A stretch of 64,000 nucleotides of DNA from an uncultured Dehalococcoidia bacterium (lineage in GTDB: Bacteria > Chloroflexota > Dehalococcoidia > Dehalococcoidales > UBA1222). A model generated the notes under the pieces. It searched no databases, was not told the DNA's origin, and was given only the letters and a program-made list of their open reading frames with translations. The DNA lies in contig CAIMVG010000008.1 of assembly GCA_903844845.1 (NCBI GenBank), positions 12,672 through 76,671 on the forward strand, read 5' to 3'. The translations under genes and the position numbers were made by a program. Shown piece by piece: positions 8,938 to 58,947 of this stretch (within the stretch, counting starts at the first letter, position 1; the number at the start of each line of letters is the position of its first letter).

Positions 8938-10329
8938 TTATTCCCAGCCGAACGGCGGGAGATCCAGGTCCCAGAATTCATCAGGGTTTTTATTCAGGCC
9001 ATTTCCCATCAAGCCATCTAACATTTTGACAGCTTTGTCGAGAGACGGTGCGGTCGCGATTGCATTATTCAAGATATTCCTGAAAATGGTCCCGTTTATA
9101 CCCCGGGAAAGCGGGCAAACTGCGAAACAGGTACTACAGCCCTCGGAATAGCCCATGATCTTTATATTGGTTAAACACGCTGCTTCATCGCGATGCCAGC
9201 TCTTGATGCCTGTTTGCTGATAATCCCCCCGGATATTCCACGATGTTTCCGTGTCTTTGGGAATCGCCCCAGACGGGCAATGATCGGCGCATTTCTTACA
9301 TATGCGGCAAAAACGCATGACTCCGAAATCAACCGGTTTACCCGGAGCGAGCGGGAGGTCGGTGATAAGTTTGAACACCCTCTGTCTGACTCCATACACA
9401 GGGGTCACCATGTGCATCGTTCGGCTATGCTCTCCAAGTCCGGCCATAATACCGAACCCAACAGAGGAACCGAGGGAGTCATAAGGATTGGCTTCTCCCA
9501 AACCCATATAACCAAGCCCCCGAAGAAAAAGTTGCAACTGGCCCTGGATGATGCTTTTAAGGTTATATGCATTTTCGGTCGGCGCCATAATCATCTGCGT
9601 GGGGGCGCTTTGTACTAGCTGATCGGCCATGCGTATCGTGTAGACTATTACCCATCGTGCCTTCCTGGGTATGATCCGTTCGGTTTTTGTTTCCGACGCC
9701 TGTGTCGCATCCGAGAAGGTCAGCTTCAAGCCCTGCGACGCGCCGGTGCCTGTGTCATACGAATATACCAGCTTTTCCGTGGTAAGCGAGTCAAGTTCCA
9801 CGAAACCGACTTCGGCCGCCCCGTGAAAACGCATAAAAGCGCGAATCATCCTGGCGTTTTCCTCCGGTTTTCCTTCGTAGACGGGGACTCCGAGGTCCCC
9901 TGGTGTCTGGTTTGTCGTTGGCCCGATGAAGCTGGTCGGCGCGAAGTATGTCGCATTGACGAAAGCATCGTCTTTCAGAGTATAGCCAGGCGTATTTGCC
10001 TTGAGACGACTTAACCGGTTGTTTCTCTGGGCCTCCATGACGTGGAGATATTGTGAAGTTCCCAGGGCTTTCTGCAGGCCGCTGGCCCAGACTACCTTGC
10101 TGTAGTCGAAGCGGTTCATTGCAGTCCAGTCAATATCTACCGTCGGCTTTTCTACCTCTCGTATATAAGAGGGCCGCATGGAAACAGCCGCCGGGGATGC
10201 CATGATTTCGTCAAGGTCATGTACCGCCCGGGCAGGGAAAAGCACCGGCGCAGCACCGCATGCCAATGCTCCCAAACCGAGCGATTTGAGGAAATCCCGT
10301 CTGCTGATGCTCGAATGGTATTTATTCAA
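8938..10329 (-). CDS. rdhA: Reductive dehalogenase homologue, catalytic subunit (RdhA)
   Basis: Twin-arginine signal SRRDFLKSLGLGALACGA. C-terminal Fe-S motifs CRICKKCADHCP and CSTCFAVCP. 463 aa. Confidence 0.85.
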   Translation of the reverse strand: MNKYHSSISRRDFLKSLGLGALACGAAPVLFPARAVHDLDEIMASPAAVSMRPSYIREVEKPTVDIDWTAMNRFDYSKVVWASGLQKALGTSQYLHVMEAQRNNRLSRLKANTPGYTLKDDAFVNATYFAPTSFIGPTTNQTPGDLGVPVYEGKPEENARMIRAFMRFHGAAEVGFVELDSLTTEKLVYSYDTGTGASQGLKLTFSDATQASETKTERIIPRKARWVIVYTIRMADQLVQSAPTQMIMAPTENAYNLKSIIQGQLQLFLRGLGYMGLGEANPYDSLGSSVGFGIMAGLGEHSRTMHMVTPVYGVRQRVFKLITDLPLAPGKPVDFGVMRFCRICKKCADHCPSGAIPKDTETSWNIRGDYQQTGIKSWHRDEAACLTNIKIMGYSEGCSTCFAVCPLSRGINGTIFRNILNNAIATAPSLDKAVKMLDGLMGNGLNKNPDEFWDLDLPPFGWE

Positions 10330-31733: not shown

Positions 31734-34385
31734 GTGTATCCGTTGGCTGAACCTTCGAATACAGATGTAAATCAAAGGCCCGGTTCAAAAACCGTGCGCA
31801 AGGTATTTTTAACTTCAGGCGCGGGGATATTAGTCCTGGGTGGCATCTTGCTTACCAGACTCCAAGGTTACCTGTTGTTTCACGGCGTCGCGGAAGTATT
31901 CAGCATCGTAATCGCCTGTGCCGTTTTCATCTATGCGTGGAATGCCCGCAAACTTCTGCACAACAGTTATCTTATGGTAATCGGTATTTCGTTTGTATGC
32001 TACAGCCTAATCGCGCTGGTTCACACTTTGTCATTCAAGGGCATGGGCGTATTCCCGGCCAATTCCGCCAACCTGCCGACACAGCTTTGGATAGCCGGGC
32101 GTTATCTGCTGGCTGTCAGCTTCCTGGCAGCCCCCTCTGTTGCAGGAAAATCTGTCAAGCCCTGGGCCATCTTTGCAGTATATTCCATCGTTACTTCGCT
32201 GGTGTTTTTGTCGATTTTTCACTGGCACATATTCCCTGCCTGTTATGTCGATGGAAAAGGTTTGACGCAGTTCAAGATCTACAGCGAGTATATTATCTCG
32301 GCTGTTTTCCTTCTCTCTATCCTGGCCTTGTTCAGGAAACGCACCATTTTTGAAACAAGCATATTCTGGCTGATAGTGACTGCCATATTCGTTACCATAT
32401 CTTCCGAAATAGCTTTCACCCGTTATGTCGGGGTTTACAGTTCTGCGAATCTGATTGGGCACCTGTTGAATATCGTGGCCTTTTATCTGTTTTACGAAGC
32501 CATATTGGTCACCGGTTTCCAGACGCCCATCGATACGCTCTTCAAAGACAAGAATCAAGCTATCGAAAAACTGAATGAGAGCAACGATTGGTTGCGTCAG
32601 AGTAATGCAAAACTTGATCTTGCATTGCATTCTGCCCACATGGGTGTGTGGCAATGGGATATTGTTACCGGAAAGCGCACTTTCGATGTCCATACCTGTG
32701 CTATGTTGGGACTGGATCCTGCGAAATTCAGCGGTGAAGCTGCTGAATTTTTTGCGGTAATTCATCCGGATGATCGTCAAAATATCAAAGCTGCTCTGGA
32801 ACGCGCCATCAAAGAGGGAGTGATGTACGAGTCTGACTATCGCGCGGTCTGGCCCGACGGCAGCATACATTATATATCTTCCCGCGGACGCCCAGTGCGT
32901 GACAAAGAGGGGGTTCCTCGAAGCATTAGTGGCATCGCCTGGGACATCACCGGCAGCAAGCATACCGAAGAAATGTTACGGGATAGCCAAGAACGCTTTC
33001 GCTACGTTTTGGAAAACGTTCTGGATGCTGTCTGGTCTGCCAATCTATCGGGGCGATACGAGTTTTTGAGCCCGCGTATGGCGGATATCTACGGTCTACC
33101 GATAACGGAGATGACAAATAATTCGAACTTCTGGCTCGAGGCCGTCTACCCGGAGGATAAAGCTTTAGTTTCCCCTTCCGCCAAGGCTCTTTTTAGGGAT
33201 GGTCGCGTTGAAATTGAATATCGCATCATTCTTCCGGGCGGTACGGTAAAATGGATCCTTGATCGTAAAACTCTTGTTCGAAACACACGCGGAGAACCAT
33301 CGGGAATGGCTGGCATTGTATCGGACATCACCAAACGCAAGCAGGCCGAAGATATACTGCGAACGAGCCAGGAACGCTTTCAAGAGGTGCTGGATAATTC
33401 GCAGGATGCGGCTTATAAACGCAGCCTGACGAGCAACTCTTATGAATATTTAAGCCCTGTTTTCGCCAAAATCACCGGCTTTACGCCGAACGAGATGAAT
33501 GTTCTGCCGGTTGAATCGGTAGTGGAGTTAATGCACCCTGATGACCGGGCGAATGTCGAAAGCTCACTCGGCCATGCCATTGCCAATGCCCATGGCACAG
33601 CATACACAACCGAGTATCGTTTCAAGCGCAAAGACGGGCAATACTGCTGGCTTCAGGATAGCTTTACTGTTATGGGAGATGCGAATGGAAAGCCCTTGGC
33701 GCTTATCGGGAGCGTAAGCGACATCACAGTGCGCAAGCAGTCCGAGGAGAAAATCAAGGCTTCGTTGGCCGAAAAGGAAGTGCTCCTCAAGGAAATCCAC
33801 CACCGCGTCAAGAACAACATGCAGGTCATCTCGAGTTTGCTACGTATGCAGTCCGGTTTCCTCAAGGACGCAGACGATAAACGCATGTTCCAGGAAAGCC
33901 AGGAACGCATCCAGTCCATGTCTCTCGTTTATAACAAGCTCTACCAGTCTGAAAACCTTGCCAGCATCAGCTTCGGAGGATACGTCGATGACCTGGTGGG
34001 CAACCTGATAAAGTCCCATAATTCCAGGGATGTGCCTCCCCGTGTGCTTATAGATATTGATGGTATCGAGCTTTCTCTGGACTTCGCCATACCCTGCGGT
34101 CTCATCATCAACGAGGTTGTCACCAACGCTCTGAAATACGCTTTCCCGCAGGGACAGGTGGGCCAGATCCACATCATCATCCGTCAGAAAGAAGACCGCA
34201 TCGAGATGTCTCTTGGGGATGACGGCATAGGTCTGCCCGAGGGTTTAACCATCGGCAGTACCAAATCGCTGGGTATGGTGCTCATTCAGACCCTTGCCGT
34301 GCATCAGTTGGGCGGGACACTTGAATTAAAGCGGGAGAAAGGCACGGAGTACTGCATCAATTTCCCGCTGGTATTTGAGGGGTAG
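31734..34385 (+). CDS. Membrane sensor histidine kinase (polytopic N-domain, 3 PAS, HisKA_2, HATPase_c)
   Basis: 7-8 TM helices. PAS modules closed by DIT..K. H-box [17 protein letters not shown]. GTG start (a TTG at 31743 is also possible). Confidence 0.9.
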   Translation: [883 protein letters not shown]

Positions 34386-35929: not shown

Positions 35930-36066
35930 CAGACCTGAACCGTAATGGATCTATGCCGAAACAGACCTTTGACCAGGCGGTGGCGGCAACAATTATCGGA
36001 TCAAGCCGGAGACGCGGCTAGAATACCACTTATCGACAAACACACAAAGAATCCCAGCTAAACAAC

Positions 36067-36098
36067 ACAGCGCCCACTGCTAATGTAGTGGGCGCTGT
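36067..36098. terminator. Perfect 12-bp stem hairpin
   Basis: ACAGCGCCCACT-GCTAATGT-AGTGGGCGCTGT. Abuts the stop of the unassigned minus-strand ORF 36099-36320. Confidence 0.4.
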
Positions 36099-36420
36099 CT
36101 ATATGTTTACCCGAAGCCTGATAGTATGAAAAAACATAATTCCTGAAAATCCAAACACGAGATCCGTATCAACTGAATTACCAACGGCAATCCCCTGCAG
36201 GTCGGGCTGACGATGTCTATGATTGCCAGTGGCAAATCCGGGTAATAAAACACCCTCGAGTTTCAACCCTTGCGCTTTCGTGCCTTGCAATTTCATCGTA
36301 AAAAGGAACGAGTATGCCAAGCGGGTTTTTCTGTCGCAATCCGATAACAGTGACGGGCCCCGCTAAATACATGGCCCCGTGGGCGACAAGCCCGTAAAGG
36401 CTAACCTGACGTGTAAGGTG

Positions 36421-36597
36421 GATGGGGAACGGGATTGCCGCGCTACGCTCGCAATGACAACGACGATGAGGACCGGGATTGTCGGGTCAAGTCCGACAAT
36501 GACAACGACGATAAGGGACGGGATTGCCGGGCCAAGTCCGACAATGACAACGACGATGGGGAACGGGATTGCCGCGCTACGCCCGCAATGACAACGG
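36421..36597. repeat. Four contiguous 43-45-nt tandem hairpin repeats ending in AATGACAACG
   Basis: Units at 36421-36464, 36465-36509, 36510-36554 and 36555-36597. Units 1 and 4 carry GGGATTGCCGCGCTACGC(T/C)CGCAATGACAACG. Units 2 and 3 carry GGGATTG(T/C)CGGG(T/C)CAAGTCCGACAATGACAACG. ATTGTCGG/CCGACAAT forms a perfect inverted repeat. Confidence 0.75.
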
Positions 36598-36790
36598 TGG
36601 AGATCAGTTCATGTTTTCAGTTTCAACAGCGGCGCCAAGCAGGACCTCCTCCAGGCAATTCCAAAGGATGGCGTCATTAAACGGCTTTTGGATGTACCCG
36701 CAGGGTTTGGTACCTGCGGCCTACCGTACTCCAGCCAGCCAAAACGGCACCTGGCTAAAAGTAGCAAAATCGGATGCTGTATGATGTTAA

Positions 36791-37741
36791 TTGAATGGGA
36801 TGGTTATGACGATAAAATTAAAAACTGCTTTCCTGGCGATTCTTTGCATCGTAATATCTATGGGCGCATGCAGAGCCACAACCAACACGGGCCCAAATAC
36901 GCCTTCGACAACTGCACCCGCGTATATTTCTAAACTGGGAAGCATTGAAAAAAACTTGTCCTATAGCAATACGGACTTTATCAACCTCAAGTTGGATATA
37001 TATTATCCACAGACAGCCCCGGGGCCCATGCCAGTTGTGATATACCTTCACGGAGGCGCCTGGATCGGAGGCGACAAGTCGGATGCGGCCGCCTCTCCTG
37101 AAATAGCCGAAATGGTCAAAAGAGGTTTTCTCGTTGCAGCCGTTAACTACGGTCTGGCGCCGCAATATACGATAACAGGCCAGGTAGAAAACGCTAAATG
37201 CGCGGTGCGTTTTCTGCGGGCCAACTCTGCATATTTTGGCATCAACCCGGACAAAATAGGCGCCTTCGGTGACAGCGCCGGCGGGCACCTGGCCTCCTTG
37301 CTTGGGACTTCCGATAAAAGTGCAGGGATGGATGTTGCAGGCGGTTTTCTGGGCCAATCCAGCCGCGTTCAGTGTGTGGTGGACTTCTATGGCCCAACGG
37401 ACCTGAGAGCCCTGTTCAACGGATACCCGGCCATCGTCCTTCAAGAGTTGGTCGGCGTTTCTGACCCCAAATCAGGGATCCTGGACAAAATCAACCCCTT
37501 GAATTATGTTTCCACCGATGATCCGCCTTTCCTGATCCTGCATGGAGACAAGGACACCGTAGTGCCACTAAGCCAATCGCAGTTGCTCTATCAAAGCCTG
37601 ATAGCGGCCGGTGTCCCGGCAACCCTGGTGGTGGTGAAAAACGGAGATCATGGTTTTGGGCCGGTAGGGGGCCCGATATCGCCTACCCGGACAGAAATAA
37701 CCGCAAACGCAGCTGATTTTTTTGAAAGCCACCTCCAATAA
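36791..37741 (+). CDS. Alpha/beta-hydrolase fold-3 esterase/lipase lipoprotein
   Basis: Lipobox ISMGAC. HGGAW oxyanion motif. GDSAGG nucleophile elbow. Confidence 0.85.
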   Translation: MNGMVMTIKLKTAFLAILCIVISMGACRATTNTGPNTPSTTAPAYISKLGSIEKNLSYSNTDFINLKLDIYYPQTAPGPMPVVIYLHGGAWIGGDKSDAAASPEIAEMVKRGFLVAAVNYGLAPQYTITGQVENAKCAVRFLRANSAYFGINPDKIGAFGDSAGGHLASLLGTSDKSAGMDVAGGFLGQSSRVQCVVDFYGPTDLRALFNGYPAIVLQELVGVSDPKSGILDKINPLNYVSTDDPPFLILHGDKDTVVPLSQSQLLYQSLIAAGVPATLVVVKNGDHGFGPVGGPISPTRTEITANAADFFESHLQ

Positions 37742-37825
37742 AGGTATGCGTACGTTCAGAGTAACCAGGTTGAAAGGAAACGTTATGACAACCGGATCCC
37801 AAATATCATTATGGCGGGACATTAA

Positions 37826-38659
37826 ATGACGGTCAGAATCGTAACCGACAGCACTTCAGACATACCATCGTCTTTGATCGGGGAACTGGGCATCAAGGTG
37901 GTCCCGGTCATCGTACGTTTTGGCAAACAGGAATTCCGGTCCGGGATCGACCTGACCCCGCAGGAGTTTTACACAAGGCTGGCGTCAGAGATACATCCGC
38001 ATACTTCACAGCCCGCACCCGAGGATTTTGCAAAGGTATTCCGGGAACCAGGCCCCGATTGCGAAGGTATAATCTGCGTCAACATATCTGCCAAATTGTC
38101 GGGCGCAGTCAATTCGGCCAACCAGGGGAAAATACTGGCAGAAGGCAAATGCCCAATCGAGGTCGTCGACTCCCGTTTTAACTCCATCGGTTTGGGGATC
38201 ATCGTTATCAAGGCAGCGAAACTGGCCAGAAGCGGAGCCAGCCTGCCGCAAATAGTCGACGCGGTCAAGTCGGATATCGAAAAGATAAGGATGCTGGGCA
38301 TCTTCGACACCATGAAATACCTGGTCCGGGGCGGAAGGGTGAGCCTTATCAGGGCGAGCGCGGCCCGAATCTTAAATGTTAAACCTATGCTCACGTTCCG
38401 TGACGGCGAGGTGGCCCAGGCAGGGCTGGTGCGTTCCTACGACAAGGGGATCAGCAAGATAGTCGACTTCGTCAGAAATCAGGGGAAAATCCTGGACCTG
38501 GCCATAGCCCATAGCATGGTGCCGGAAAGGGCAGCAGAATTGAAATCCAGGCTGGGAGAATTGTTTCCGGCGGATAACATCCTTGTCACCGAACTCGGGC
38601 CTGCACTGGGCGTACACGGCGGCCCGGGCGTGCTCCTGGTGGCTTTGCGCAAGGATTAA
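37826..38659 (+). CDS. DegV-family fatty-acid-binding protein
   Basis: VRIVTDSTSDIP N-terminus. 277 aa. Confidence 0.85.
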   Translation: MTVRIVTDSTSDIPSSLIGELGIKVVPVIVRFGKQEFRSGIDLTPQEFYTRLASEIHPHTSQPAPEDFAKVFREPGPDCEGIICVNISAKLSGAVNSANQGKILAEGKCPIEVVDSRFNSIGLGIIVIKAAKLARSGASLPQIVDAVKSDIEKIRMLGIFDTMKYLVRGGRVSLIRASAARILNVKPMLTFRDGEVAQAGLVRSYDKGISKIVDFVRNQGKILDLAIAHSMVPERAAELKSRLGELFPADNILVTELGPALGVHGGPGVLLVALRKD

Positions 38660-38682
38660 CCGGGATATAAGGAGGTAACCCA

Positions 38683-39231
38683 ATGTCCATCGAAAGCCCG
38701 AAATACAAAGTAGTCGAGCGCGATAACAAATTCGAGATCCGGGATTATTCAAAATATATCGCGGCAGAAGTCGATGTGGAGGCCGGATACAACGACGCTC
38801 TGAATACGGGATTCGGGATACTGGCAGGTTACATCTTCGGGGGCAACAGCGCCAGGGCCAGCATCGCCATGACTGCTCCGGTAACAGAAAAATCGGAGAA
38901 AATCCCGATGACCAAGCCGGTTTCAGCCTATCACAAGCAGGGGCAGGTCTATACAATCAGCTTCAGTATGCCCCGTAAATACTCGCTGGATACCCTGCCG
39001 CAACCGAATGACGCAAATATCCGTCTCAGGGAGGTCCCTGCCGCCAGGGTGGCTGCCCTGAGGTTTTCCGGCAGCCTGAACGAGAGACTGGTAACAAAGA
39101 AAACCTCTGAATTGACGGAATGGCTGAAACAGAAAAACCTGCATCCCAAGTCAACCGTAGCTTCATGCCAGTATAATCCTCCGTGGATACCCGGCCCTTT
39201 CAGAACAAACGAGGTCATGGTCAACATCTGA
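38683..39231 (+). CDS. SOUL/HEBP haem-binding family protein
   Basis: IESPKYKVVERDNKFEIRDY... over the full 182 aa. Confidence 0.75.
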   Translation: MSIESPKYKVVERDNKFEIRDYSKYIAAEVDVEAGYNDALNTGFGILAGYIFGGNSARASIAMTAPVTEKSEKIPMTKPVSAYHKQGQVYTISFSMPRKYSLDTLPQPNDANIRLREVPAARVAALRFSGSLNERLVTKKTSELTEWLKQKNLHPKSTVASCQYNPPWIPGPFRTNEVMVNI

Positions 39232-39310
39232 TCTATCATCATTGCAGAAAAGGCGCGGCATATCCAGGCAAGAACAAAGTGATTATGGAATCAGACGTTT
39301 GAGGTTCAAA

Positions 39311-40111
39311 ATGAAAGAAGCAACACCCCTGGAAAAACTAATATCATTGCAAGGCAGAACCGCTATAGTTACCGGCGCGGCCGCAGGGATAGGACGGGCT
39401 ATAGCCACCAGATTTGCCGAGGCAGGCGCGGACCTGGAACTGGTGGATATCAACCTGAAAGGGCTTGAAAACCTGAAGCAGGAATTGTCGAAAATGGGCC
39501 GCAGCATCAACCTCTACCAATTCGATATGTCTGTCAGTGAAAACATAACTGCGCTCTGGCAAAAATGGCAAGACGCACCACCTGATATCCTGGTAAACAA
39601 CGTGGGCATATATCCGCCCCAGGATTTTCTGACGCTGGAACACAGCGTGTGGCAAAAAGTGATGGACACCAACCTGAACTCAACCCAGCACATGTGCCGT
39701 TACATGCTCAAATCCAGGGGAAATAAAGGCGGGGTGATAATCAACCTGGGATCCATCGAAGCCATCCTGCCCTTTGCCGATGACCTGGCACATTACGACG
39801 TAAGCAAGGCTGGCATCATCGCTTTAACCAGGGCACTGGCCAAGGAATTCGGCAAAAAAGGCTTTAAGATCAATGCCATCCTGCCCGGAGGGATCGATAC
39901 CCCGGGCACCCAGGCGGTGGCAGCCCGCATACTGACCAAATTTGACGTCGGCCTTATCCCAAGCGGTATAAAATACCTGAGCAGGATACCGTTAGGCAGG
40001 CGCGGCCAGGCGGATGAGGTGGCACGCATAGCGCTTTTCCTGGCATGCGACCTATCGTCTTACGTCCAGGGGGCATTGATCCCTGCAGACGGGGGCTTTT
40101 TATCCAGTTGA
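39311..40111 (+). CDS. Short-chain dehydrogenase/reductase (SDR)
   Basis: TGAAAGIGRA Rossmann motif. Catalytic YDVSKAG. ATG at 39311 is 6 nt after GAGG. Confidence 0.85.
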   Translation: MKEATPLEKLISLQGRTAIVTGAAAGIGRAIATRFAEAGADLELVDINLKGLENLKQELSKMGRSINLYQFDMSVSENITALWQKWQDAPPDILVNNVGIYPPQDFLTLEHSVWQKVMDTNLNSTQHMCRYMLKSRGNKGGVIINLGSIEAILPFADDLAHYDVSKAGIIALTRALAKEFGKKGFKINAILPGGIDTPGTQAVAARILTKFDVGLIPSGIKYLSRIPLGRRGQADEVARIALFLACDLSSYVQGALIPADGGFLSS

Positions 40112-40145
40112 GCGCTGTAAAAGACTTCAGGTTTAAGGAGGGAGC

Positions 40146-40676
40146 ATGAACGCTACAAGGCTGGTCCTGCTGATAATCAATATCATCGGCGGAGCCGCGG
40201 TATTGGGAAGCTATATACTGGGCCTAAAGACCCACTCCGGAGGCGCCGATGTGCTCTGGGGGGGTACACCCCAACGCATACGTTCCGCCTACGGTTTCTC
40301 GATGATACTGTCCGCCGTCGGATACCTTGCTTTTGCCTATTTCATCATCTTCAGGCTTGACCCCGCCAATACCCTGATAGCGGGAAAAACGGATTATGGC
40401 ATTTTCCCCCTTCTTTTCGTGTTGATCCTGTCCGCCTCGGCGTTGTGGATGCCCCTGACATATGTTTATATCGGGCATTCCACAGCGGCATTATGGGTCG
40501 GAATCCGCATCGTCCTTTTGACAGTGGGGATATCATCCTGCGCCCTGGTCTGGGCGCTGCTCAACCTTAAAAACGGAGAGGGTTATACATACTGGCTGGC
40601 GGTTAGCGGCGCAGCCTATTTTGCCTTCCATACCCTGGTTTTAGACGCTTTGACCTGGCCGGCGCTGTTCCGTTAG
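40146..40676 (+). CDS. Polytopic membrane protein, unknown function
   Basis: GGAGGGAG RBS. 5-6 hydrophobic helices. Confidence 0.6.
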   Translation: MNATRLVLLIINIIGGAAVLGSYILGLKTHSGGADVLWGGTPQRIRSAYGFSMILSAVGYLAFAYFIIFRLDPANTLIAGKTDYGIFPLLFVLILSASALWMPLTYVYIGHSTAALWVGIRIVLLTVGISSCALVWALLNLKNGEGYTYWLAVSGAAYFAFHTLVLDALTWPALFR

Positions 40677-40767
40677 CCCGCACCGGACGCTCTCAATTTC
40701 ACCATAAAACAAGGCCGGCTCCTTTTACGGAAGCCGGCCTGCTTCTTACCTGGACTTATTGTTCAGC

Positions 40768-41535
40768 CTACTTGATAACCAGCACGGGGAAAAAGATCTG
40801 CCAGGCCAATAGCGCCTTGGCGGTCAGGCTGAGGATGATATACACCTTTTCACCGAAGAGATAATCGCGCCAAGGCCCCACCTTTTTGTACTGCAAGATC
40901 ATATTGACGGCGAAGCAGTTGAAGAAGATGAAGAGCGAGATGATGATGCCGTAGACGAATCCGGGAGGCGATACGTTCAGGCCCGGAGCGATAGTGTAGA
41001 TGACGACCGCCACCCAGGGGATGGCCCCGGCGAAGCAGCCCATCCAGAAGGGCAGAAGGTTTTTGTTGCCCGGCTTCTCATATTTCTCCTGCAGAGCGCC
41101 AAAGAGTATCATGCTGGCGTTGACTCCGAAGATGCCCAGCAGGGCGGCGATATCGCTGATGCCCACGATCTGGGAGATGAGCACTATCATCAAAGACGAA
41201 CTGAAGAAATACTCTATCCAGCGCCCGTAGTTGCGGCTCTCCAGCAGGTTTCGCTTGTACCAGGGGAAAACCCAGGGAGAGGCGATGCTCAATAAGGCCA
41301 GGGCCGATATGGTCAGGAAGGCGAAAACGCCCCAGCCGGTGGCGATATTGAATAACTGGTGAAGCGCAGGAGCAGTGCCGGGAGGCCCGGCCATGAAGGT
41401 GGCGGTCACCGGCAGGGAGAAATTGTTGGTGAGTACGGCGATCATGACCGCTTGAACGGCGAGTATCAAACCGACCACGATGTTCCAGACACGCAACTTC
41501 TTGACTTGCTTTTCTACAGATTGATCAACATCCAT
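40768..41535 (-). CDS. Heliorhodopsin
   Basis: Collinear with heliorhodopsin 48C12 as I remember it: RWIEYFFSSS (counter-ion Glu), FGVNASMILFGALQEKY, LLPFWMGC, PGFVYGIIISLF, and the Schiff-base Lys in ILSLTAKALLAWQIF. ATG at 41535 is 6 nt after AAGGAGGG. Confidence 0.9.
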   Translation of the reverse strand: MDVDQSVEKQVKKLRVWNIVVGLILAVQAVMIAVLTNNFSLPVTATFMAGPPGTAPALHQLFNIATGWGVFAFLTISALALLSIASPWVFPWYKRNLLESRNYGRWIEYFFSSSLMIVLISQIVGISDIAALLGIFGVNASMILFGALQEKYEKPGNKNLLPFWMGCFAGAIPWVAVVIYTIAPGLNVSPPGFVYGIIISLFIFFNCFAVNMILQYKKVGPWRDYLFGEKVYIILSLTAKALLAWQIFFPVLVIK

Positions 41536-41591
41536 ACTTTTCCCTCCTTTTGACGAAACTCTACCACACATTGAAACATTTTATATCGGAA

Positions 41592-41999
41592 CTATGATAT
41601 TGCCCTGGCGATAAAATAGCCTGCCGATGCGACCGCGGCTGAAAGTACGGTGCCCCACGCGATATCAACGACGGTCAGTATAGCCGGCCAGTTATTAAGG
41701 GTTGCCAGATTGCTGAGGTCATAGGTGGCATAGGCCACCATCCCGAGGAGCCCTCCGGCCAGCATGGCGCGCAGCCATGAGCCTTTATCGACGGCCGGAA
41801 GAACGACCAGCACCAGCATCCCGACTATAAAGATAAAATAAAATAATATCGCCGGCGCCCAGTTTACTTTGTCGCTCATCAATCCTGCCAAACGGGGCTT
41901 GTAAAAACGTGAATTCATCACGCTGAGCCATATCAAGTCGATGCCGAAACAAACCGCGAGTGTGGAGAAATATAACACGAGTGTTTTAAAAAAACCCAT
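41592..41999 (-). CDS. DUF2177 membrane protein
   Basis: YDLSNLATLNNWPAILTVVDIAWGTVLSA is typical of DUF2177. Lies 56 nt upstream of the heliorhodopsin gene on the same strand. Confidence 0.8.
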   Translation of the reverse strand: MGFFKTLVLYFSTLAVCFGIDLIWLSVMNSRFYKPRLAGLMSDKVNWAPAILFYFIFIVGMLVLVVLPAVDKGSWLRAMLAGGLLGMVAYATYDLSNLATLNNWPAILTVVDIAWGTVLSAAVASAGYFIARAIS

Positions 42000-42036
42000 A
42001 TCTCCAAGCCCCCTTCAAGGATGTTTTTGCATCATT

Positions 42037-42065
42037 ATATTACTTATGAGTATCCGGATAGTCAA
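42037..42065 (-). promoter_or_regulatory. Promoter of the DUF2177-heliorhodopsin pair
   Basis: Gene strand: TTGACT, 17 nt, TAATAT, about 37 nt before the DUF2177 ATG. Confidence 0.45.
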
Positions 42066-42273
42066 TGGTTACAATCTATAGGTTCGCAGCATCCTGTATT
42101 ACCTCACCGTTATACCAAGCGCCCCCCATACTGCCCGACCCACCCGAGGACTTTTATCCGTAATAATTTATAAAAATGTCATAATTACTGAACTATTGTT
42201 ATGACTCCTTGATACACCCGGGCATATTATTTATCCAAACTTATTTGAAAAAATGAGGAAAAGAAGGTGCTGG

Positions 42274-42807
42274 ATGAAAAACAGATTTGGTCAAAAATTG
42301 TTTAAAGGATTGGTTCTGAGTTTGGTGTGTTTGATTGTGTCAGGAACATTAATTATCGGCGGCTGTTCGAACGCCGGGCCTTCGAAGACCTCGACTTCTT
42401 CAACTCCAACAACGCAATCTAATACCACCAGCGCAGCCCCTGCGACAAGCAGCACACAAAGTACCACCAGTCCTGCAACCACCAAGATCAACACCCCAAC
42501 TACCAGTATCACCAATCCGGCGACGAGCAGCAGTAAGCCCCCTACTTCAACTCCCTCCTCAACATCGCCTCAAATTGTCGCAAAGGAATTTTCTTTCATC
42601 CCGCAAACCATAACCGTTGCCGTTGGCACAACAATCACATGGATCAACGACGGCTCCGAAGAGCATACTGTGTCGAGTGACACCGGTATATTTTCAGGCG
42701 TTATAAGCCCGGGGAAAACTTTCAGCTACACGTTTACAACCGCTGGAGTGTTTAACTACCATTGCGGCATCCACCCGGAGATGATCGGGACAGTGACCGT
42801 TAAGTGA
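42274..42807 (+). CDS. Type-1 copper (plastocyanin/amicyanin-like cupredoxin) lipoprotein
   Basis: Lipobox IIGGC. T/S/P linker. Cu ligands H (EEHTV) and C-x2-H-x2-M (YHCGIHPEM). Confidence 0.85.
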   Translation: MKNRFGQKLFKGLVLSLVCLIVSGTLIIGGCSNAGPSKTSTSSTPTTQSNTTSAAPATSSTQSTTSPATTKINTPTTSITNPATSSSKPPTSTPSSTSPQIVAKEFSFIPQTITVAVGTTITWINDGSEEHTVSSDTGIFSGVISPGKTFSYTFTTAGVFNYHCGIHPEMIGTVTVK

Positions 42808-42835
42808 TAGTCCCTTAGGACTTTGAGGCAGAAAT

Positions 42836-43231
42836 ATGAAAAAGGTGAACTGGCCGATTTTGACGGCCGCCATGTTTTGCGCGGTGTTCTTTACCAATGC
42901 CTGTAACGCAAACGCGACGACGGTGTCGACCAGCACTGCTCCGATCAGCGCCAGCGTGTGCCTTACAACCGCAGGCAGCGCTACTGTTAACATCATGAAC
43001 AACGCATTTCAACCCCAGATGATGACAGCCAGAGTCGGCACTACGGTCACCTTTAACAATAAGATGGGCCCGCTTACCCTTATAGGGAACAGCGGTTTTA
43101 TGATGGGGACCTTCGGCGGGATGATGATGCAGACCGGGGGAACTTATCAGTACACATTCAGTTCTCCAGGTGTTTACGTGATTTCCGCGGAGGGCCAAAG
43201 CTTTGTATGTACGATCACGGTTATCGCATAG
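42836..43231 (+). CDS. Cupredoxin-like protein lacking the type-1 Cu ligands, Met-rich
   Basis: Same fold register as the upstream gene (VGTTVTFNN versus VGTTITWIN), but the His/Cys/His/Met set is absent. Met-rich loop GFMMGTFGGMMMQTGG. Confidence 0.65.
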   Translation: MKKVNWPILTAAMFCAVFFTNACNANATTVSTSTAPISASVCLTTAGSATVNIMNNAFQPQMMTARVGTTVTFNNKMGPLTLIGNSGFMMGTFGGMMMQTGGTYQYTFSSPGVYVISAEGQSFVCTITVIA

Positions 43232-43342
43232 CCCTGGTAAACGCTGATTAAAATAAGTTGTCCAAAGATGCGAGAAAATCGACAGGCCGCATCTTGAAAA
43301 CCTGCTGATTTTTGATTTGGGATAACGCGACCGGAGGGGAAA

Positions 43343-43738
43343 ATGCGCTGGGTATTTTGGACGATAGGAGCGGCTTTACTGATAACAGCCGCCGTTTTTA
43401 TACGGCACCCGACAGCTCTGTACGACTACAAAGGCTTTGCGGTAGTCACAGTAGAGAAAGCGCTCCAGATCGAGGCTGAACGCGGAAACCAGATAGTCAC
43501 TTTCGACAAAGCAACCGATACTGCGTCTTTATATTATGATTTCTCCGACACCAAGCAAGGAGACTATGGATTTACCGGGGTACTGCATTACAATCCCTCC
43601 GGTTGGTTAATCATATTCGGGGTATTCGGTCTGTTCTCAACCGGGTTTGGATTCATAACCTGGGATGAGAGCCGGGCGTTTATTTTAAGGTGTTTACCCG
43701 GCGGAAAGAATAGAGGAGGCAAGTCTTGTTCCGAATGA
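43343..43738 (+). CDS. Hypothetical membrane protein
   Basis: ORF with N-terminal and central TM helices. GGAGGGG RBS. Confidence 0.5.
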   Translation: MRWVFWTIGAALLITAAVFIRHPTALYDYKGFAVVTVEKALQIEAERGNQIVTFDKATDTASLYYDFSDTKQGDYGFTGVLHYNPSGWLIIFGVFGLFSTGFGFITWDESRAFILRCLPGGKNRGGKSCSE

Positions 43739-43755
43739 TTGGACCGGATTTATAA

Positions 43756-44199
43756 ATGATGTATTGCTGTAAAACCAAATGGCTGCTTTCCATAGCGATT
43801 GCCGGATGCATACTGGTCGTGCCAGGTCTCAATGCCGGTTGCCAGCATTCCACAACGACGTCTAACAACACCGCATCGACATCACCGCCGGCAACGACCT
43901 CTATCGTCCGCATCCCTGCCCAACAGTTGTATGACGAATATCATTCCGACAAAGCGCAGGCCGACCTGCGATATAAGGAGAAAACCATCCAGGTGACCGG
44001 CGTGATAACCGAAGTTTCCGATGCAAGCCACCAGGAATTCTCAATGGGTGTAAACGGCGGGTCGATAGAATTTTTCGCCAGTTCGATAACAGCATTTGTC
44101 AAAGCAGTTAAAGGGAAGACAGTAACTGCCCAGGGTATCTGCCAGGGGATTTCACTAAACGGAAACCCGAGCCTGGCCTATGTGTCGATAGTTTCCTGA
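43756..44199 (+). CDS. OB-fold (tRNA_anti-like) surface lipoprotein
   Basis: Lipobox LNAGC. QLYDEYHSDKAQADLRYKEKTIQVTGVI is typical of this family. Confidence 0.65.
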   Translation: MMYCCKTKWLLSIAIAGCILVVPGLNAGCQHSTTTSNNTASTSPPATTSIVRIPAQQLYDEYHSDKAQADLRYKEKTIQVTGVITEVSDASHQEFSMGVNGGSIEFFASSITAFVKAVKGKTVTAQGICQGISLNGNPSLAYVSIVS

Positions 44200-55305: not shown

Positions 55306-58300
55306 TTAATTGAACGGGAAGGAGAAGCGGTACTCCGTGCCGTTCGTCCGGTTAAGCTCCAGTATTCCGCCCAGTTGATTCTCCACCAGGGTCTTGATAA
55401 GCACCATCCCCAATGAATTTGTGCTGCCGATAGTTAACCCTTCCGGCAAGCCCACCCCGTTGTCCCCCAGCGCCATCTCGATATGGTCTTCTATCTTTCG
55501 CATGATGACGTGGATCTGGCCTGTTTGACCGGGAGGGAAGGCGTATTTCAGCGAGTTGGTTATCACTTCGTTGATGATAAGCCCGCACGGCACGGCAAAA
55601 TCCAGCCCGAGTTCGATGTCCGTGACATCAATGAGTGTCGTGATAGTTTCAGTGCCGGAATTGTAGGCCTTGACCAGGCTGTTGACCAGGTCTCTCACGT
55701 ACTCGTTGAAGGATATATTGGCCAGGTCGGCCGACTGGTAAAGCTTGTTATACACCAGTGCCATGGAGTGGATGCGCCGCTGGCTTTCCATGAACATGAC
55801 TGCATCTTCTTCATTTTTGATAAATCCTGATTGCAATTGGAGCAGGCTTGATATCACCTGCATGTTGTTCTTGACGCGGTGATGTATCTCTTTGAGGATG
55901 ATTTCTTTTTCCGCCAGGGAAGCTTTTATTTTGCGTTCAGCTCCCTTGCGATCCGAAATATCGCGAACCACGGCCTGAAATATATCATCGGGGGATCCGA
56001 TTTTACGCACGCTGAGTTCAACATCTATCTCCGTACCGTCTTTCTTCCTGAACCTGGAATCAAACCTGACTGAACCTGTCCTGGACAGCGTATCAAAGGC
56101 GATTTCGGCATCTGCGACAAAATCCGGGGGATGATAGCTGATGGTAGGCATCGCAATCAGTTCCTCACGGCTGTATCCGAGCATTGCCATGGCCTGCCGG
56201 TTCACATCAAGCATATGGCCCTTGTCATCGTGGATGAAGATGGCATCGTTGGATTGCTCGAACAACGCCTGGAATCGCTGACCGCTGAGCCGTATGGCTT
56301 CCTGGGCCTCTTTTTGAGGCGTGATATCACGCATTATCATCCCCAGCATTTTGCGGTCAGAGGTTTGAATAACGAATGAAGACTCCTGCACCGTTTTCGT
56401 ACCACCTTCAGGGAGCTGTATCTGCCGCTCCGATGACTGACCTGACCATGTAGAACCCCCATACAATAGCTTGTAAATCCCGTTTCTTATGGACGTGGAA
56501 AGCTCTGGAGTCTTTGCATTATCAGGAAGCAAAAGAAATTGCATCTCCCAAAGGGGCCGGCCGATAGCATGGTCCCCGCTGATACCCGAGATGCCTGTCT
56601 GCGCACGATTCCATTCAGTTACGATACCGTTTCCATCGCACAGAATAATCCCATCTGCCGACTGTTCGATAAGGCTGCGGTACTTCCCTTCGCTTTTCCG
56701 CCTGGCTTCCTCCGCCTGTTTGTTCGCGGTGACATCATGGATGACGCCGAAAACCACGTTCCTGCCCGAATCGAACTCGGCCTTTGAACGGATATCCAGG
56801 ATTATACCGTCAGCCTCACGTCTGATTTTATACTCGACGTCGAAGGGTTCGTTGGATTTGACCAAAGCGTTCAACGCTTTATCAAGCATCTCCCTGTATT
56901 CAGGCAATCTGCAATTTTGGACATCCTGCAGGCTCAACGCTTCGCCATGCAACCCGTAAATATCCTGCGCCCCTTCCGAAGCAGTCATAATGGCTTTCGA
57001 CAGGTCAAGTTCCCAGTTACCGAAATTTGCCACCTTTTCGGCCCTGGCTAACCGATCTTGGCTTTGTTTTATGGCTTCTTCTGCTTTCTTGCGTCCGGTG
57101 ATATCGTGCACAACGGTATAACGGTATCTTTTGTCCTGAACAGTGATATTCTCTGCCGACAGCAGTACGCTCTTGATATCACCGTTTTTGGCCCTTAATT
57201 CCGCCTCGATGTTAGACATTGTGCCATCGGGGGACATCTTCAGGCGCAGGGCTTGATTATCTTCGGGTTTCAGGATGCCCAACTCGGCGGCTGATTTGCC
57301 GATAACCTCATCGGGGCTAAAACCGAGCAAGGTGTGAAAAGCTTCATTCACCTCGATATATTTCCCGGTCACAATATCGCTCAGCCCGCTGGCAGAAGGG
57401 TTGAGATAGAACACTTTGGAGAACTTCTCTTCGGATAATTTGATCTGCGAGATATCCTTCGATACCCAGAAGATGACCGGCTTGCCGTCCCAGGTCCCGT
57501 GCGACACCCTGGTTTCCACGGGTATCTGCATACCGGATTTTGTAACGACAGGAACGGAACCATGCCGGGTTGTACCGTTCAACATCCCATCGATTATCCC
57601 GGCGGATTCTTCGCGGCGTTCGGGAGGATGAACCATCAGAACCGGTTGTCCGGCAAGCTCTGGTTCGGTGTATACGAGACGTTCGATAACGGTAGAATTG
57701 GTGTGGATGATATCGCCATGTTCGTCAAGAACAAAGAGGAATTCATCGATGGTGTTAAAAAAAGTTTCGTAATTTTGACGGGTTTGCCATAGTGCTGCTT
57801 CCGCGTTCCCGCGTATAGTTATCTCTTGTTCCAGTTTGTCGCGGGATACGAGGTTTTCCTTTAGTTGCCCCGCCATAGCGGCGATCGAACGGGCCAGCCG
57901 GCCTATTTCACCCTTATTGGTGATATTTACATCGTAATCCAGATTACCTTTGCCGATTTCAACCGCGGCATTCTGCAATCGGCGAAGCGGGCGTGTGATG
58001 CCGATAACCAGTAAACACGTAAGAATACTTGCCGAGAGAATGATTAAAGCAGTCGCCATGACGGAATTTTGCGTCAAGGTTTTGAGCAACGAAAAGGCCG
58101 CAGCGCTTGGTGTGACGACGATCACGCCCCAGGGCAACCCCGGGACAGTGGCATAACCGGTTATGACCATCTCTCCACTGCTGTTTTTAGTCTCTATAGC
58201 CCCGCTTTCACCCGCCAATAACCGGGCAGTTGCTTCATTATTCCCTGAGACTGGCGTCATTATTCGTGTTGGATCGGGATGTGCGATAATCACACCGCCC

Positions 58301-58947
58301 CCACGGGTATCTACCAGTGCAGTACGGGCGGAATTCCCGTAATCTACGTTCACAATCATCTCAGACAACCTGGAGAGAGAAATAATACCGGTTAGCACAC
58401 CCACGACCTGCCCATCGATGCCCAGAATCGGGACAGAATATGGTATGGTGGGTTCCCCGGTGAGCGGTGAAACAACCGGAACGCCCAGATAGGGCAGGCC
58501 TGTAGAGATAACCTTTTGGAACCAATCGCGGTCAGAAAACGACTGGCCGATGTCAGCTGCGTTTTTTATGCTGTCCGCCGTCTGTATCCCTTTTGCATCG
58601 AATACAGAAAGGTTTTCCAGAGTTGATTGAACAGCGAGGGACTGGGCAAGCAAGGGTTGAAGAGTCTCAGGAGTATCGTTAAGAATTGCTGCGGTGAGAT
58701 CCGGGTGATCAGCTAACTCCCGTATATCTCCCTGAACCGAGGCCATATACTCAAACGTGAAATTGGCTGCCAATTCAGCATGAGACAGATTACTTTTAAA
58801 ATTATCCTGGCGGATGGAATCACGGCTGAGATTGATTGTTGTGATAGCCTGAATACCGCCAGTCAGCAAAACCAAAATCACCACCAAACTGAGCAGCTGG
58901 AACCCGAGGCTGAAGCGAAAAGCGAAAAGTTGAGTGTGTTTTACCAC
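55306..58947 (-). CDS. Large sensor histidine kinase (Cache-like periplasmic domain, HAMP, multiple PAS, HisKA_2, HATPase_c)
   Basis: N-terminal TM helix, about 260-aa extracytoplasmic domain and second TM. HAMP, then at least 5 PAS modules. H-box EIHHRVKNNMQVISSLL. The C-terminal 200 aa are paralogous to 31734-34385. Confidence 0.9.
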   Translation of the reverse strand: MVKHTQLFAFRFSLGFQLLSLVVILVLLTGGIQAITTINLSRDSIRQDNFKSNLSHAELAANFTFEYMASVQGDIRELADHPDLTAAILNDTPETLQPLLAQSLAVQSTLENLSVFDAKGIQTADSIKNAADIGQSFSDRDWFQKVISTGLPYLGVPVVSPLTGEPTIPYSVPILGIDGQVVGVLTGIISLSRLSEMIVNVDYGNSARTALVDTRGGGVIIAHPDPTRIMTPVSGNNEATARLLAGESGAIETKNSSGEMVITGYATVPGLPWGVIVVTPSAAAFSLLKTLTQNSVMATALIILSASILTCLLVIGITRPLRRLQNAAVEIGKGNLDYDVNITNKGEIGRLARSIAAMAGQLKENLVSRDKLEQEITIRGNAEAALWQTRQNYETFFNTIDEFLFVLDEHGDIIHTNSTVIERLVYTEPELAGQPVLMVHPPERREESAGIIDGMLNGTTRHGSVPVVTKSGMQIPVETRVSHGTWDGKPVIFWVSKDISQIKLSEEKFSKVFYLNPSASGLSDIVTGKYIEVNEAFHTLLGFSPDEVIGKSAAELGILKPEDNQALRLKMSPDGTMSNIEAELRAKNGDIKSVLLSAENITVQDKRYRYTVVHDITGRKKAEEAIKQSQDRLARAEKVANFGNWELDLSKAIMTASEGAQDIYGLHGEALSLQDVQNCRLPEYREMLDKALNALVKSNEPFDVEYKIRREADGIILDIRSKAEFDSGRNVVFGVIHDVTANKQAEEARRKSEGKYRSLIEQSADGIILCDGNGIVTEWNRAQTGISGISGDHAIGRPLWEMQFLLLPDNAKTPELSTSIRNGIYKLLYGGSTWSGQSSERQIQLPEGGTKTVQESSFVIQTSDRKMLGMIMRDITPQKEAQEAIRLSGQRFQALFEQSNDAIFIHDDKGHMLDVNRQAMAMLGYSREELIAMPTISYHPPDFVADAEIAFDTLSRTGSVRFDSRFRKKDGTEIDVELSVRKIGSPDDIFQAVVRDISDRKGAERKIKASLAEKEIILKEIHHRVKNNMQVISSLLQLQSGFIKNEEDAVMFMESQRRIHSMALVYNKLYQSADLANISFNEYVRDLVNSLVKAYNSGTETITTLIDVTDIELGLDFAVPCGLIINEVITNSLKYAFPPGQTGQIHVIMRKIEDHIEMALGDNGVGLPEGLTIGSTNSLGMVLIKTLVENQLGGILELNRTNGTEYRFSFPFN

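Follow-up and report, generated by a model that had tools for sequence, protein, structure and literature searches.

The stretch analysed here, called the window, comprises 64,000 nucleotides (nt) from an uncultured Dehalococcoidia bacterium (GenBank assembly GCA_903844845.1, contig CAIMVG010000008.1, positions 12,672 to 76,671 of the forward strand), and it contains a heliorhodopsin (HeR) gene preceded on the same strand by a gene encoding a DUF2177 membrane protein. Comparison of this pair with related loci showed that DUF2177 is an enriched and recurrent but optional neighbour of HeR genes, not a fixed subunit. The reading that we favour, with moderate confidence, is that the HeR is co-expressed with DUF2177 and acts as a light sensor with a slow photocycle, within a frequently reshuffled set of genes for photo-oxidative membrane defence that in the window would include an esterase, a DegV-family protein, a SOUL protein, an SDR oxidoreductase and a membrane protein of 176 amino acids (aa).

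The HeR gene (40768–41535, minus strand, 255 aa) was identified by family matches, by alignment to the heliorhodopsin 48C12 and by a table of key residues. Its open reading frame (ORF) scored 317 bits against Pfam PF18761 (E = 9e-95, cut-off 26.7) and 314 bits against the NCBIfam equivalog NF038020 (cut-off 100), and residues 8–253 of the product aligned with residues 6–254 of 48C12 (PDB 6su3; E = 5e-75). An earlier note on this DNA had described the protein as collinear with 48C12 and as conserving both the Schiff-base Lys and the counter-ion Glu, and the alignment confirmed this: the former is K240, located in SLTAKALLAWQIF (codon 40816–40818) and corresponding to K241 of 48C12, and the latter is E108, located in RWIEY (codon 41212–41214) and corresponding to E107. 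A longer ORF starting at 41571 was judged unlikely because the ATG at 41535 is preceded by GGAGG at a distance of 7 nt and because the homologues are 255 aa long. By homology to characterised HeRs, the protein would bind retinal, undergo a slow photocycle without ion transport and be inserted in the membrane with inverted topology, the N-terminus lying inside.

The collinearity with 48C12 (PDB 6su3 / 6uh3) extends over the full length, and the equivalents of S76, Y92, N101, W105, N138 and S237 are also kept; however, three positions differ, with H23 replaced by L25, H80 by L81 and Q213 by M212. The first two form a His pair in helices 1 and 2 of 48C12 that is typical of the family, though not defining for it (codons 41461–41463 for L25 and 41293–41295 for L81 in the window). 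The Leu variant was found in 120 out of 120 of the closest homologues for L25 and in 119 out of 120 for L81; among diverse HeRs, H80 was kept in 70 of 74 and H23 in 55 of 74. Both substitutions, at the same numbering, are known from HULAa30F3 (H25L and H81L), the HeR of a Dehalococcoidia fosmid, which absorbs at 562 nm, forms little of the M intermediate and is encoded near a DegV gene (Chazan et al. 10.1101/2021.02.16.431466; 2022 Environ Microbiol). Judged by its residues, the window HeR is a member of this characterised Dehalococcoidia clade with Leu at both conserved His positions, and it shares with HULAa30F3 the Dehalococcoidia origin and a DegV gene nearby. The two loci differ in that DUF2177 precedes HeR in the window, where the DegV gene is on the opposite strand at a distance of 2 kb. 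The 562-nm absorption and the low M intermediate may be carried over to the window HeR from HULAa30F3, matched by residues and description, by homology only.

The first gene of the pair (41592–41999, minus strand) encodes a 135-aa protein with four transmembrane helices, which matched PF09945 with 148.8 bits (cut-off 26.9). As the earlier note had stated, it lies 56 nt upstream of HeR with no terminator in between. The spacer (41536–41591, minus strand) carries a Shine-Dalgarno sequence GGAGG for HeR at 41543–41547, no terminator-like site was found in it, and it is unstructured (fold of −7.8 kcal/mol, z +0.33). A strong G+C-rich hairpin with an 11-bp stem (40712–40740, both strands) follows the HeR stop codon and is common to HeR and to the convergent gene for the 176-aa protein; it is followed on the minus strand by UUGUUUUAU, which provides a U-run, and its folding energy was −29.3 kcal/mol (z −3.7) on the minus strand and −26.4 kcal/mol (z −2.8) on the plus strand. 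It is likely a bidirectional terminator of both genes. An operon-like layout of DUF2177 and HeR is thus supported by the common strand, the 56-nt unstructured spacer, the Shine-Dalgarno sequence and the location of a terminator only after HeR. Most likely, a single promoter in front of DUF2177 would serve both genes as one unit, with transcription stopping at the hairpin.

For this promoter, the earlier note had proposed a good TTGACT-17-TAATAT element. The site exists (42065–42037, minus strand), but it has only 9/12 matches, and the region contained four promoter-like sites against 2.6 ± 1.6 in shuffled sequences, so that this one alone is not above chance. At two orthologous loci, L083 and L163, DUF2177 is preceded by a separate TTGACA-type element with another spacing, so that the window promoter is not conserved in position with them. 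The DUF2177-HeR spacers of these two loci (L083:6405–6538 and L163:2309–2406) are longer (96–130 nt) and share a conserved GTTGTTGACAGTT..CAGATCAAAA block that is absent from the 56-nt spacer of the window; in those lineages this block may serve as an operator or as a promoter inside the unit. On the plus strand, TTGAAA-16-TATGAT at 41571–41598 overlaps the DUF2177-HeR spacer; with 10/12 positions it is the best sigma-70-like match of the region, and transcription from it would run antisense through DUF2177. No Rfam families were detected within positions 36000–44000.

The pairing of HeR with DUF2177 is already known, as are the proximity of DegV and SOUL genes and the rarity of blh, and the window represents one more example. 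In thousands of HeR neighbourhoods, the two families that best characterised the surroundings of HeR were DUF2177 and DegV, in many cases accompanied by DUF1295, in a pattern that was found mainly in Firmicutes and Chloroflexi and was stated to be non-universal; SOUL and PNPOx were also among the recurrent neighbours, the orientation of the genes was favourable for co-expression, and the repair or remodelling of membranes damaged by photosensitisers was proposed as the role of HeRs (Chazan et al. 10.1101/2021.02.16.431466). In addition, ten frequent groups of HeR operon neighbours include DUF2177, SDR and alpha/beta-hydrolase genes (Cho et al. 2024, Nat Commun, PMC11109279). Other HeRs bind and regulate partners encoded in their operons, namely glutamine synthetase, the CPD photolyase and the OmrDE ABC transporter. 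The window pair resembles the published co-operonic group in being adjacent and on one strand, with one predicted promoter, a 56-nt spacer and no intervening terminator, and SDR and alpha/beta-hydrolase genes are present in the window; it differs in that DUF1295 is missing and in that the SDR and the hydrolase lie outside the HeR operon. With the partner-regulating HeRs, the window HeR shares the co-operonic arrangement and conserved basic residues in a cytoplasmic loop (K217, K218, R222), although its candidate partner is a 135-aa four-helix membrane protein known from sequence and model.

This precedent of binding to operon-encoded partners, the published enrichment with orientations favourable for co-expression and the tight, terminator-free spacing on one strand are all points in favour of an obligate membrane complex, in which DUF2177 would be a subunit or effector dedicated to HeR. 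Two surveys bear on this alternative. On the HeR side, one genome per species was scanned with a 9-sequence HeR alignment (40 diverse HeRs were too divergent for this purpose), which returned more than 596 relatives. The best 80 of them, with 51–83% identity and mostly from Chloroflexota (Dehalococcoidia) and Actinomycetota, were kept, and 63 of these extended 900 bp or more on either side of HeR. The DUF2177 profile found no match within 10 kb of HeR in any of these 80 best species-level loci (63 with full flanks); the same profile does match both contigs of the organism of the window. Three Dehalococcoidia loci of the 80 have DegV adjoining HeR instead, followed in two of them by a homologue of the 176-aa protein. 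The sole DUF1295 gene among the 80 HeR loci (L024:8982–10016, minus strand) lies directly upstream of HeR and divergent from it in an Actinomycetes genome, which fits the published sporadic association of DUF1295.

Starting from DUF2177, 80 loci were collected from metagenomes, 43 of them with full flanks, and HeR was near DUF2177 in a single one (L083; 1/80 overall and 1/43 with full flanks). The regular neighbour there is DUF1295, present in 34 of the 80 loci (24 of the 43 fully flanked ones) and typically found 2–5 nt downstream of DUF2177. Further recurrent neighbours among the 80 loci were MerR regulators with B12-binding domains (8), NAD-binding/DUF2867 proteins (8), TspO (6) and SOUL (5), together with an FAD amine-oxidase-type enzyme and TerC. 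The MerR regulators carry two B12-binding domains, as in the light-responsive CarH/LitR-like type, and are encoded just upstream of DUF2177 or of DUF2177-DUF1295 in L089, L091, L093, L099, L110, L145, L159 and L160. An apparent DUF2177-DUF1295 fusion of 381 aa in five loci was discarded, the two genes being in different frames and Pfam detecting only DUF1295 in it.

These counts, zero of 80 and one of 80, contradict the proposal of the earlier note that DUF2177 could be a fixed membrane partner. Its related expectation, that DUF2177 is enriched beside HeRs in other genomes, held in the sense that such an enrichment had already been published, but it did not extend to the 80 nearest HeR loci, and the published pattern was itself stated to be non-universal. 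Other observations argue against an obligate complex. HeRs that are 83–85% identical to that of the window stand alone or with DegV and the 176-aa protein, and the HeRs with a DUF2177 neighbour belong to one subclade with others that have none. In the DUF2177 tree, the HeR-linked proteins are interleaved with equally similar ones linked to DUF1295, DegV or TspO (75–85% identity for HeR-linked vs 77% for DUF1295-linked proteins). In addition, DUF2177 is also found in Chlamydomonas and in a chlorovirus, and the list of genes co-induced with it in Chlamydomonas includes no rhodopsin (the genomes themselves were not checked for HeR). We therefore regard an obligate complex as unlikely, even though at least four lineages, represented by the window, L083, L163 and the P0006 contig, have HeR after DUF2177 in this order and on one strand.

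The same set of close relatives bears on the opposite explanation, in which rapid shuffling of gene order has brought the two genes together, without meaning for HeR function. Gene order around HeR does differ in almost every related genome examined, and the promoter match does not exceed the chance level, as this explanation would have it. However, HeR is linked to DUF2177 in four of the eight lineages that carry its closest orthologues (72–85% identity), and two single-copy genes would come to lie within a few kb of each other by chance with a probability below 1%, assuming a genome of a few megabases. In the other four lineages, DUF2177 is accompanied by DUF1295, DegV or TspO instead (L164, L170, L085 and L084), as in the gene orders 3betaHSD-DUF1295-DUF2177-MsrA-Rieske of L164 and DUF1295-DUF2177-methyltransferase-TspO of L170. 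The same few families thus reappear around both DUF2177 and HeR, and the statistical enrichment published for thousands of HeRs spans several phyla. A meaningless adjacency seems improbable to us on these grounds, and it is ranked, like the obligate complex, below a light sensor within a photo-oxidative gene set.

Expression evidence for DUF2177 was found in a eukaryote only. In Chlamydomonas, singlet oxygen induces in a SAK1-dependent manner the genes of DUF2177, DUF1295, DUF1365, CFA1/2, SOUL1/2, MSRA3, a Rieske protein and a fasciclin protein (Wakao et al. 2014, PMC4067076). The DUF2177, DUF1295, SOUL, MsrA, Rieske, fasciclin and SDR families co-occur both in this regulon and around bacterial DUF2177 or HeR loci; the fasciclin label near DUF2177 is a tentative one, read from the sequence. 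The algal genes form a dispersed regulon and not a cluster, with no rhodopsin among the induced genes listed, and the window differs from the regulon in having no DUF1295, CFA synthase or MsrA. Because the families induced in Chlamydomonas are those that surround bacterial DUF2177, for instance MsrA-Rieske in L164, we consider that DUF2177 is probably part of a conserved, lipid-directed response to light-made singlet oxygen in membranes, together with DUF1295. A further regulon of this kind is the sigmaE-ChrR regulon of Rhodobacter sphaeroides.

The DUF2177 protein was modelled with AlphaFold2 as a four-helix bundle (pLDDT 94.9) with helices at residues 3–37, 47–72, 75–100 and 106–134, and a fold search of the PDB with this model gave no match below E = 3. 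All 17 family-invariant columns are kept in the window protein (D21, W24, Y33, F53, Y54, P68, G86, T92-Y93-D94-L95, N97, W104-P105, D112 and W115-G116). Since the loop at residues 28–46 carries four basic residues, the positive-inside rule would place the conserved Asp, Tyr, Asn and Trp of the model near the cytoplasmic leaflet. No conserved His or Cys was found in the DUF2177 alignment, which speaks against a carotenoid oxygenase dependent on iron.

This last result bears on a third alternative, namely that the chromophore is supplied or delivered by DUF2177, either by itself or jointly with the SDR, SOUL or esterase proteins, through a postulated retinal pathway without blh. In agreement with the earlier note, no crt, blh or carotenoid-cleavage (CCD) gene was found in the window by a Pfam scan of its ORFs of at least 180 aa (barring overlapping, presumably spurious ones), nor among the gene calls of this organism's public contig. 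Such an absence is the published norm for HeR loci and no peculiarity of this one: blh is rare near HeRs, and an unknown retinal route has been postulated (Chazan et al. 10.1101/2021.02.16.431466). Although the alternative would fit this absence and the frequency of SDR genes among published HeR neighbours, 79 of the 80 DUF2177 loci have no HeR nearby, DUF2177 lacks the His or Cys residues to bind iron for oxidative cleavage, and the genes that regularly accompany it are DUF1295 and stress genes rather than carotenoid genes. The SDR of the window (39242–40111, plus strand; PF13561 and PF00106; public gene call from about 39311, 266 aa) is FabG-like in its best NCBIfam matches, which stay below the equivalog cut-offs; the suggestion of the earlier note that it might act on retinol or retinal is unsupported here. 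Of the alternatives weighed here, the supply of chromophore is the least probable, and it too is ranked below the light-sensor reading.

The SDR is one of five plus-strand genes that, separated by short gaps, run head-on into HeR, encoding an esterase, DegV, SOUL, the SDR and the 176-aa membrane protein. The identities that the earlier note had given for DegV, SOUL and SDR were supported by Pfam, and these three genes lie on the strand opposite to HeR and converge on it; the note had overlooked the gene that abuts HeR, encoding the 176-aa protein, and the esterase. The latter, first of the run (36791–37741, plus strand), is a BD-FAE or hormone-sensitive-lipase-like protein (PF20434, 191 bits), with all its lipase and esterase NCBIfam matches below their cut-offs. 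A 45-bp tandem repeat with four copies and 82% match is located upstream of it (36421–36596); it is non-coding, and spurious 'PRYARNDN'-like ORFs are its translations. The DegV-family protein (37826–38659, plus strand), of the fatty-acid-binding, FakB-like kind, matched PF02645 with 234 bits and TIGR00762 with 265.7 bits (cut-off 99.7); against the FakB1 equivalog it scored 122.6 bits with a cut-off of 350, and no Dak2/FakA match was found among the window ORFs scanned. Finally, the SOUL haem-binding-domain protein (38683–39231, plus strand) matched PF04832 with 169.5 bits, and a SOUL gene also follows DUF2177-HeR in L083 and L163.

The fifth gene of the run (40146–40676, plus strand), convergent with HeR and abutting it, encodes the 176-aa membrane protein with five predicted helices, which belongs to no Pfam or NCBIfam family. 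It had 334 detectable homologues, none of them with a Pfam domain, and the few with a source name were all from Chloroflexota, to which the family seems to be confined. Its AlphaFold2 model is a five-helix bundle (pLDDT 90.4) with a weak resemblance to the five helices of RsTSPO (TM-scores of 0.53/0.59, E = 1.2). Its identification as a TspO was rejected, given the lack of a Pfam match and an hhalign probability of 0.2 against the TspO neighbours, and homology to DUF2177 was likewise rejected (hhalign probability 0.7%).

Homologues of this protein adjoin HeR, HeR-DegV or both in the window and in L008, L011, L166, L171 and L172, with the order HeR-DegV-176-aa protein in L008, L011 and L166 and the order HeR-DegV-3betaHSD-176-aa protein in L172. 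They also occur without HeR in L173, in L174 and, after a Staygreen gene, in L175; the order in L174 is DegV-3betaHSD-DUF1295-176-aa protein-Staygreen-MsrB. Two of five independently sampled loci of such homologues adjoin HeR, each with a chance expectation well below 1%. The Staygreen genes (L174:6870–7370 and L175:4340–4825), of the Mg-dechelatase family, adjoin the 176-aa homologues in non-phototrophic Chloroflexota, which hints at the handling of chlorophyll-derived photosensitisers. As the protein has no Pfam family, neighbour surveys based on Pfam could not have seen it. We propose, tentatively and as a possibility that we hold to be considerably less probable than the light-sensor reading, that it is an overlooked membrane companion of the Leu/Leu HeR clade, which swaps with DUF2177 in the slot after DUF1295, in a module for defence against photosensitisers and singlet oxygen that would also contain Staygreen, SOUL, TspO and MsrA/B and have HeR as its light input.

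In the light-sensor reading that we favour, the HeR would be a retinal-binding sensor and not a pump, and the gene set around it would be loosely linked and often reshuffled, counteracting the membrane damage driven by light through singlet oxygen or photosensitisers. The set would act through the handling of fatty acids and lipids and through tetrapyrrole binding. Light would activate the HeR, which would then modulate a protein encoded by a neighbouring gene by contact, by analogy with glutamine synthetase, the photolyase and the ABC transporter; alternatively, HeR and its neighbours may simply share a light-related regulation. DUF2177 would be an optional member of the set that normally works with DUF1295 in the absence of a rhodopsin, and not a dedicated HeR subunit. 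Gene identities, gene layout and neighbourhood counts were observed directly; the step from light to partner and the role of the set in lipid and singlet-oxygen responses are both inferred.

Several points weigh against this reading. Many close HeR homologues stand alone, as in L168, and neither DUF1295, CFA synthase, MsrA nor a light-responsive regulator adjoins the DUF2177-HeR unit in the window. The promoter match upstream of DUF2177 is weak, with 9/12 positions and a site count at the shuffled level. Since no public RNA run containing the window sequence was returned (the matching DNA runs were lake and freshwater metagenomes), the operon is an anatomically reasonable reading, and co-transcription of the pair is inferred from gene anatomy only. 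The link to singlet oxygen is drawn from the composition of the neighbourhoods and from one algal transcriptome.

Other features were observed farther from the pair. On the plus strand and divergent from DUF2177, a secreted Thr/Ser-rich cupredoxin-domain protein (42253–42807) and a small secreted protein (42836–43231) are encoded, in an arrangement kept only in contigs of the same organism. A reductive-dehalogenase homologue (8938–10329, minus strand; PF13486 and 4Fe-4S domains) is located near a cytochrome c, a DsbD-type membrane protein and a P-type ATPase; together with the names on the homologues, it fits the Dehalococcoidia origin of the DNA. In addition, three large multi-PAS histidine kinases, one of them with a MASE3 membrane sensor, are encoded at 14–2485 (plus strand), 31734–34385 (plus strand) and 55306–58947 (minus strand), none of them adjoining the HeR unit.

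In conclusion, conserved neighbours are the main leads to the function of HeRs. What is new here is, on the one hand, a negative result, in that DUF2177 occurs mostly with DUF1295 and without a rhodopsin and is no fixed HeR partner, and, on the other hand, a connection of the bacterial DUF2177 neighbourhoods, through the same families, to the singlet-oxygen regulon of Chlamydomonas. The Chloroflexota family of the 176-aa protein, recurring beside HeR and DegV, provides one new lead and may be considered a candidate for binding to HeR alongside DUF2177.

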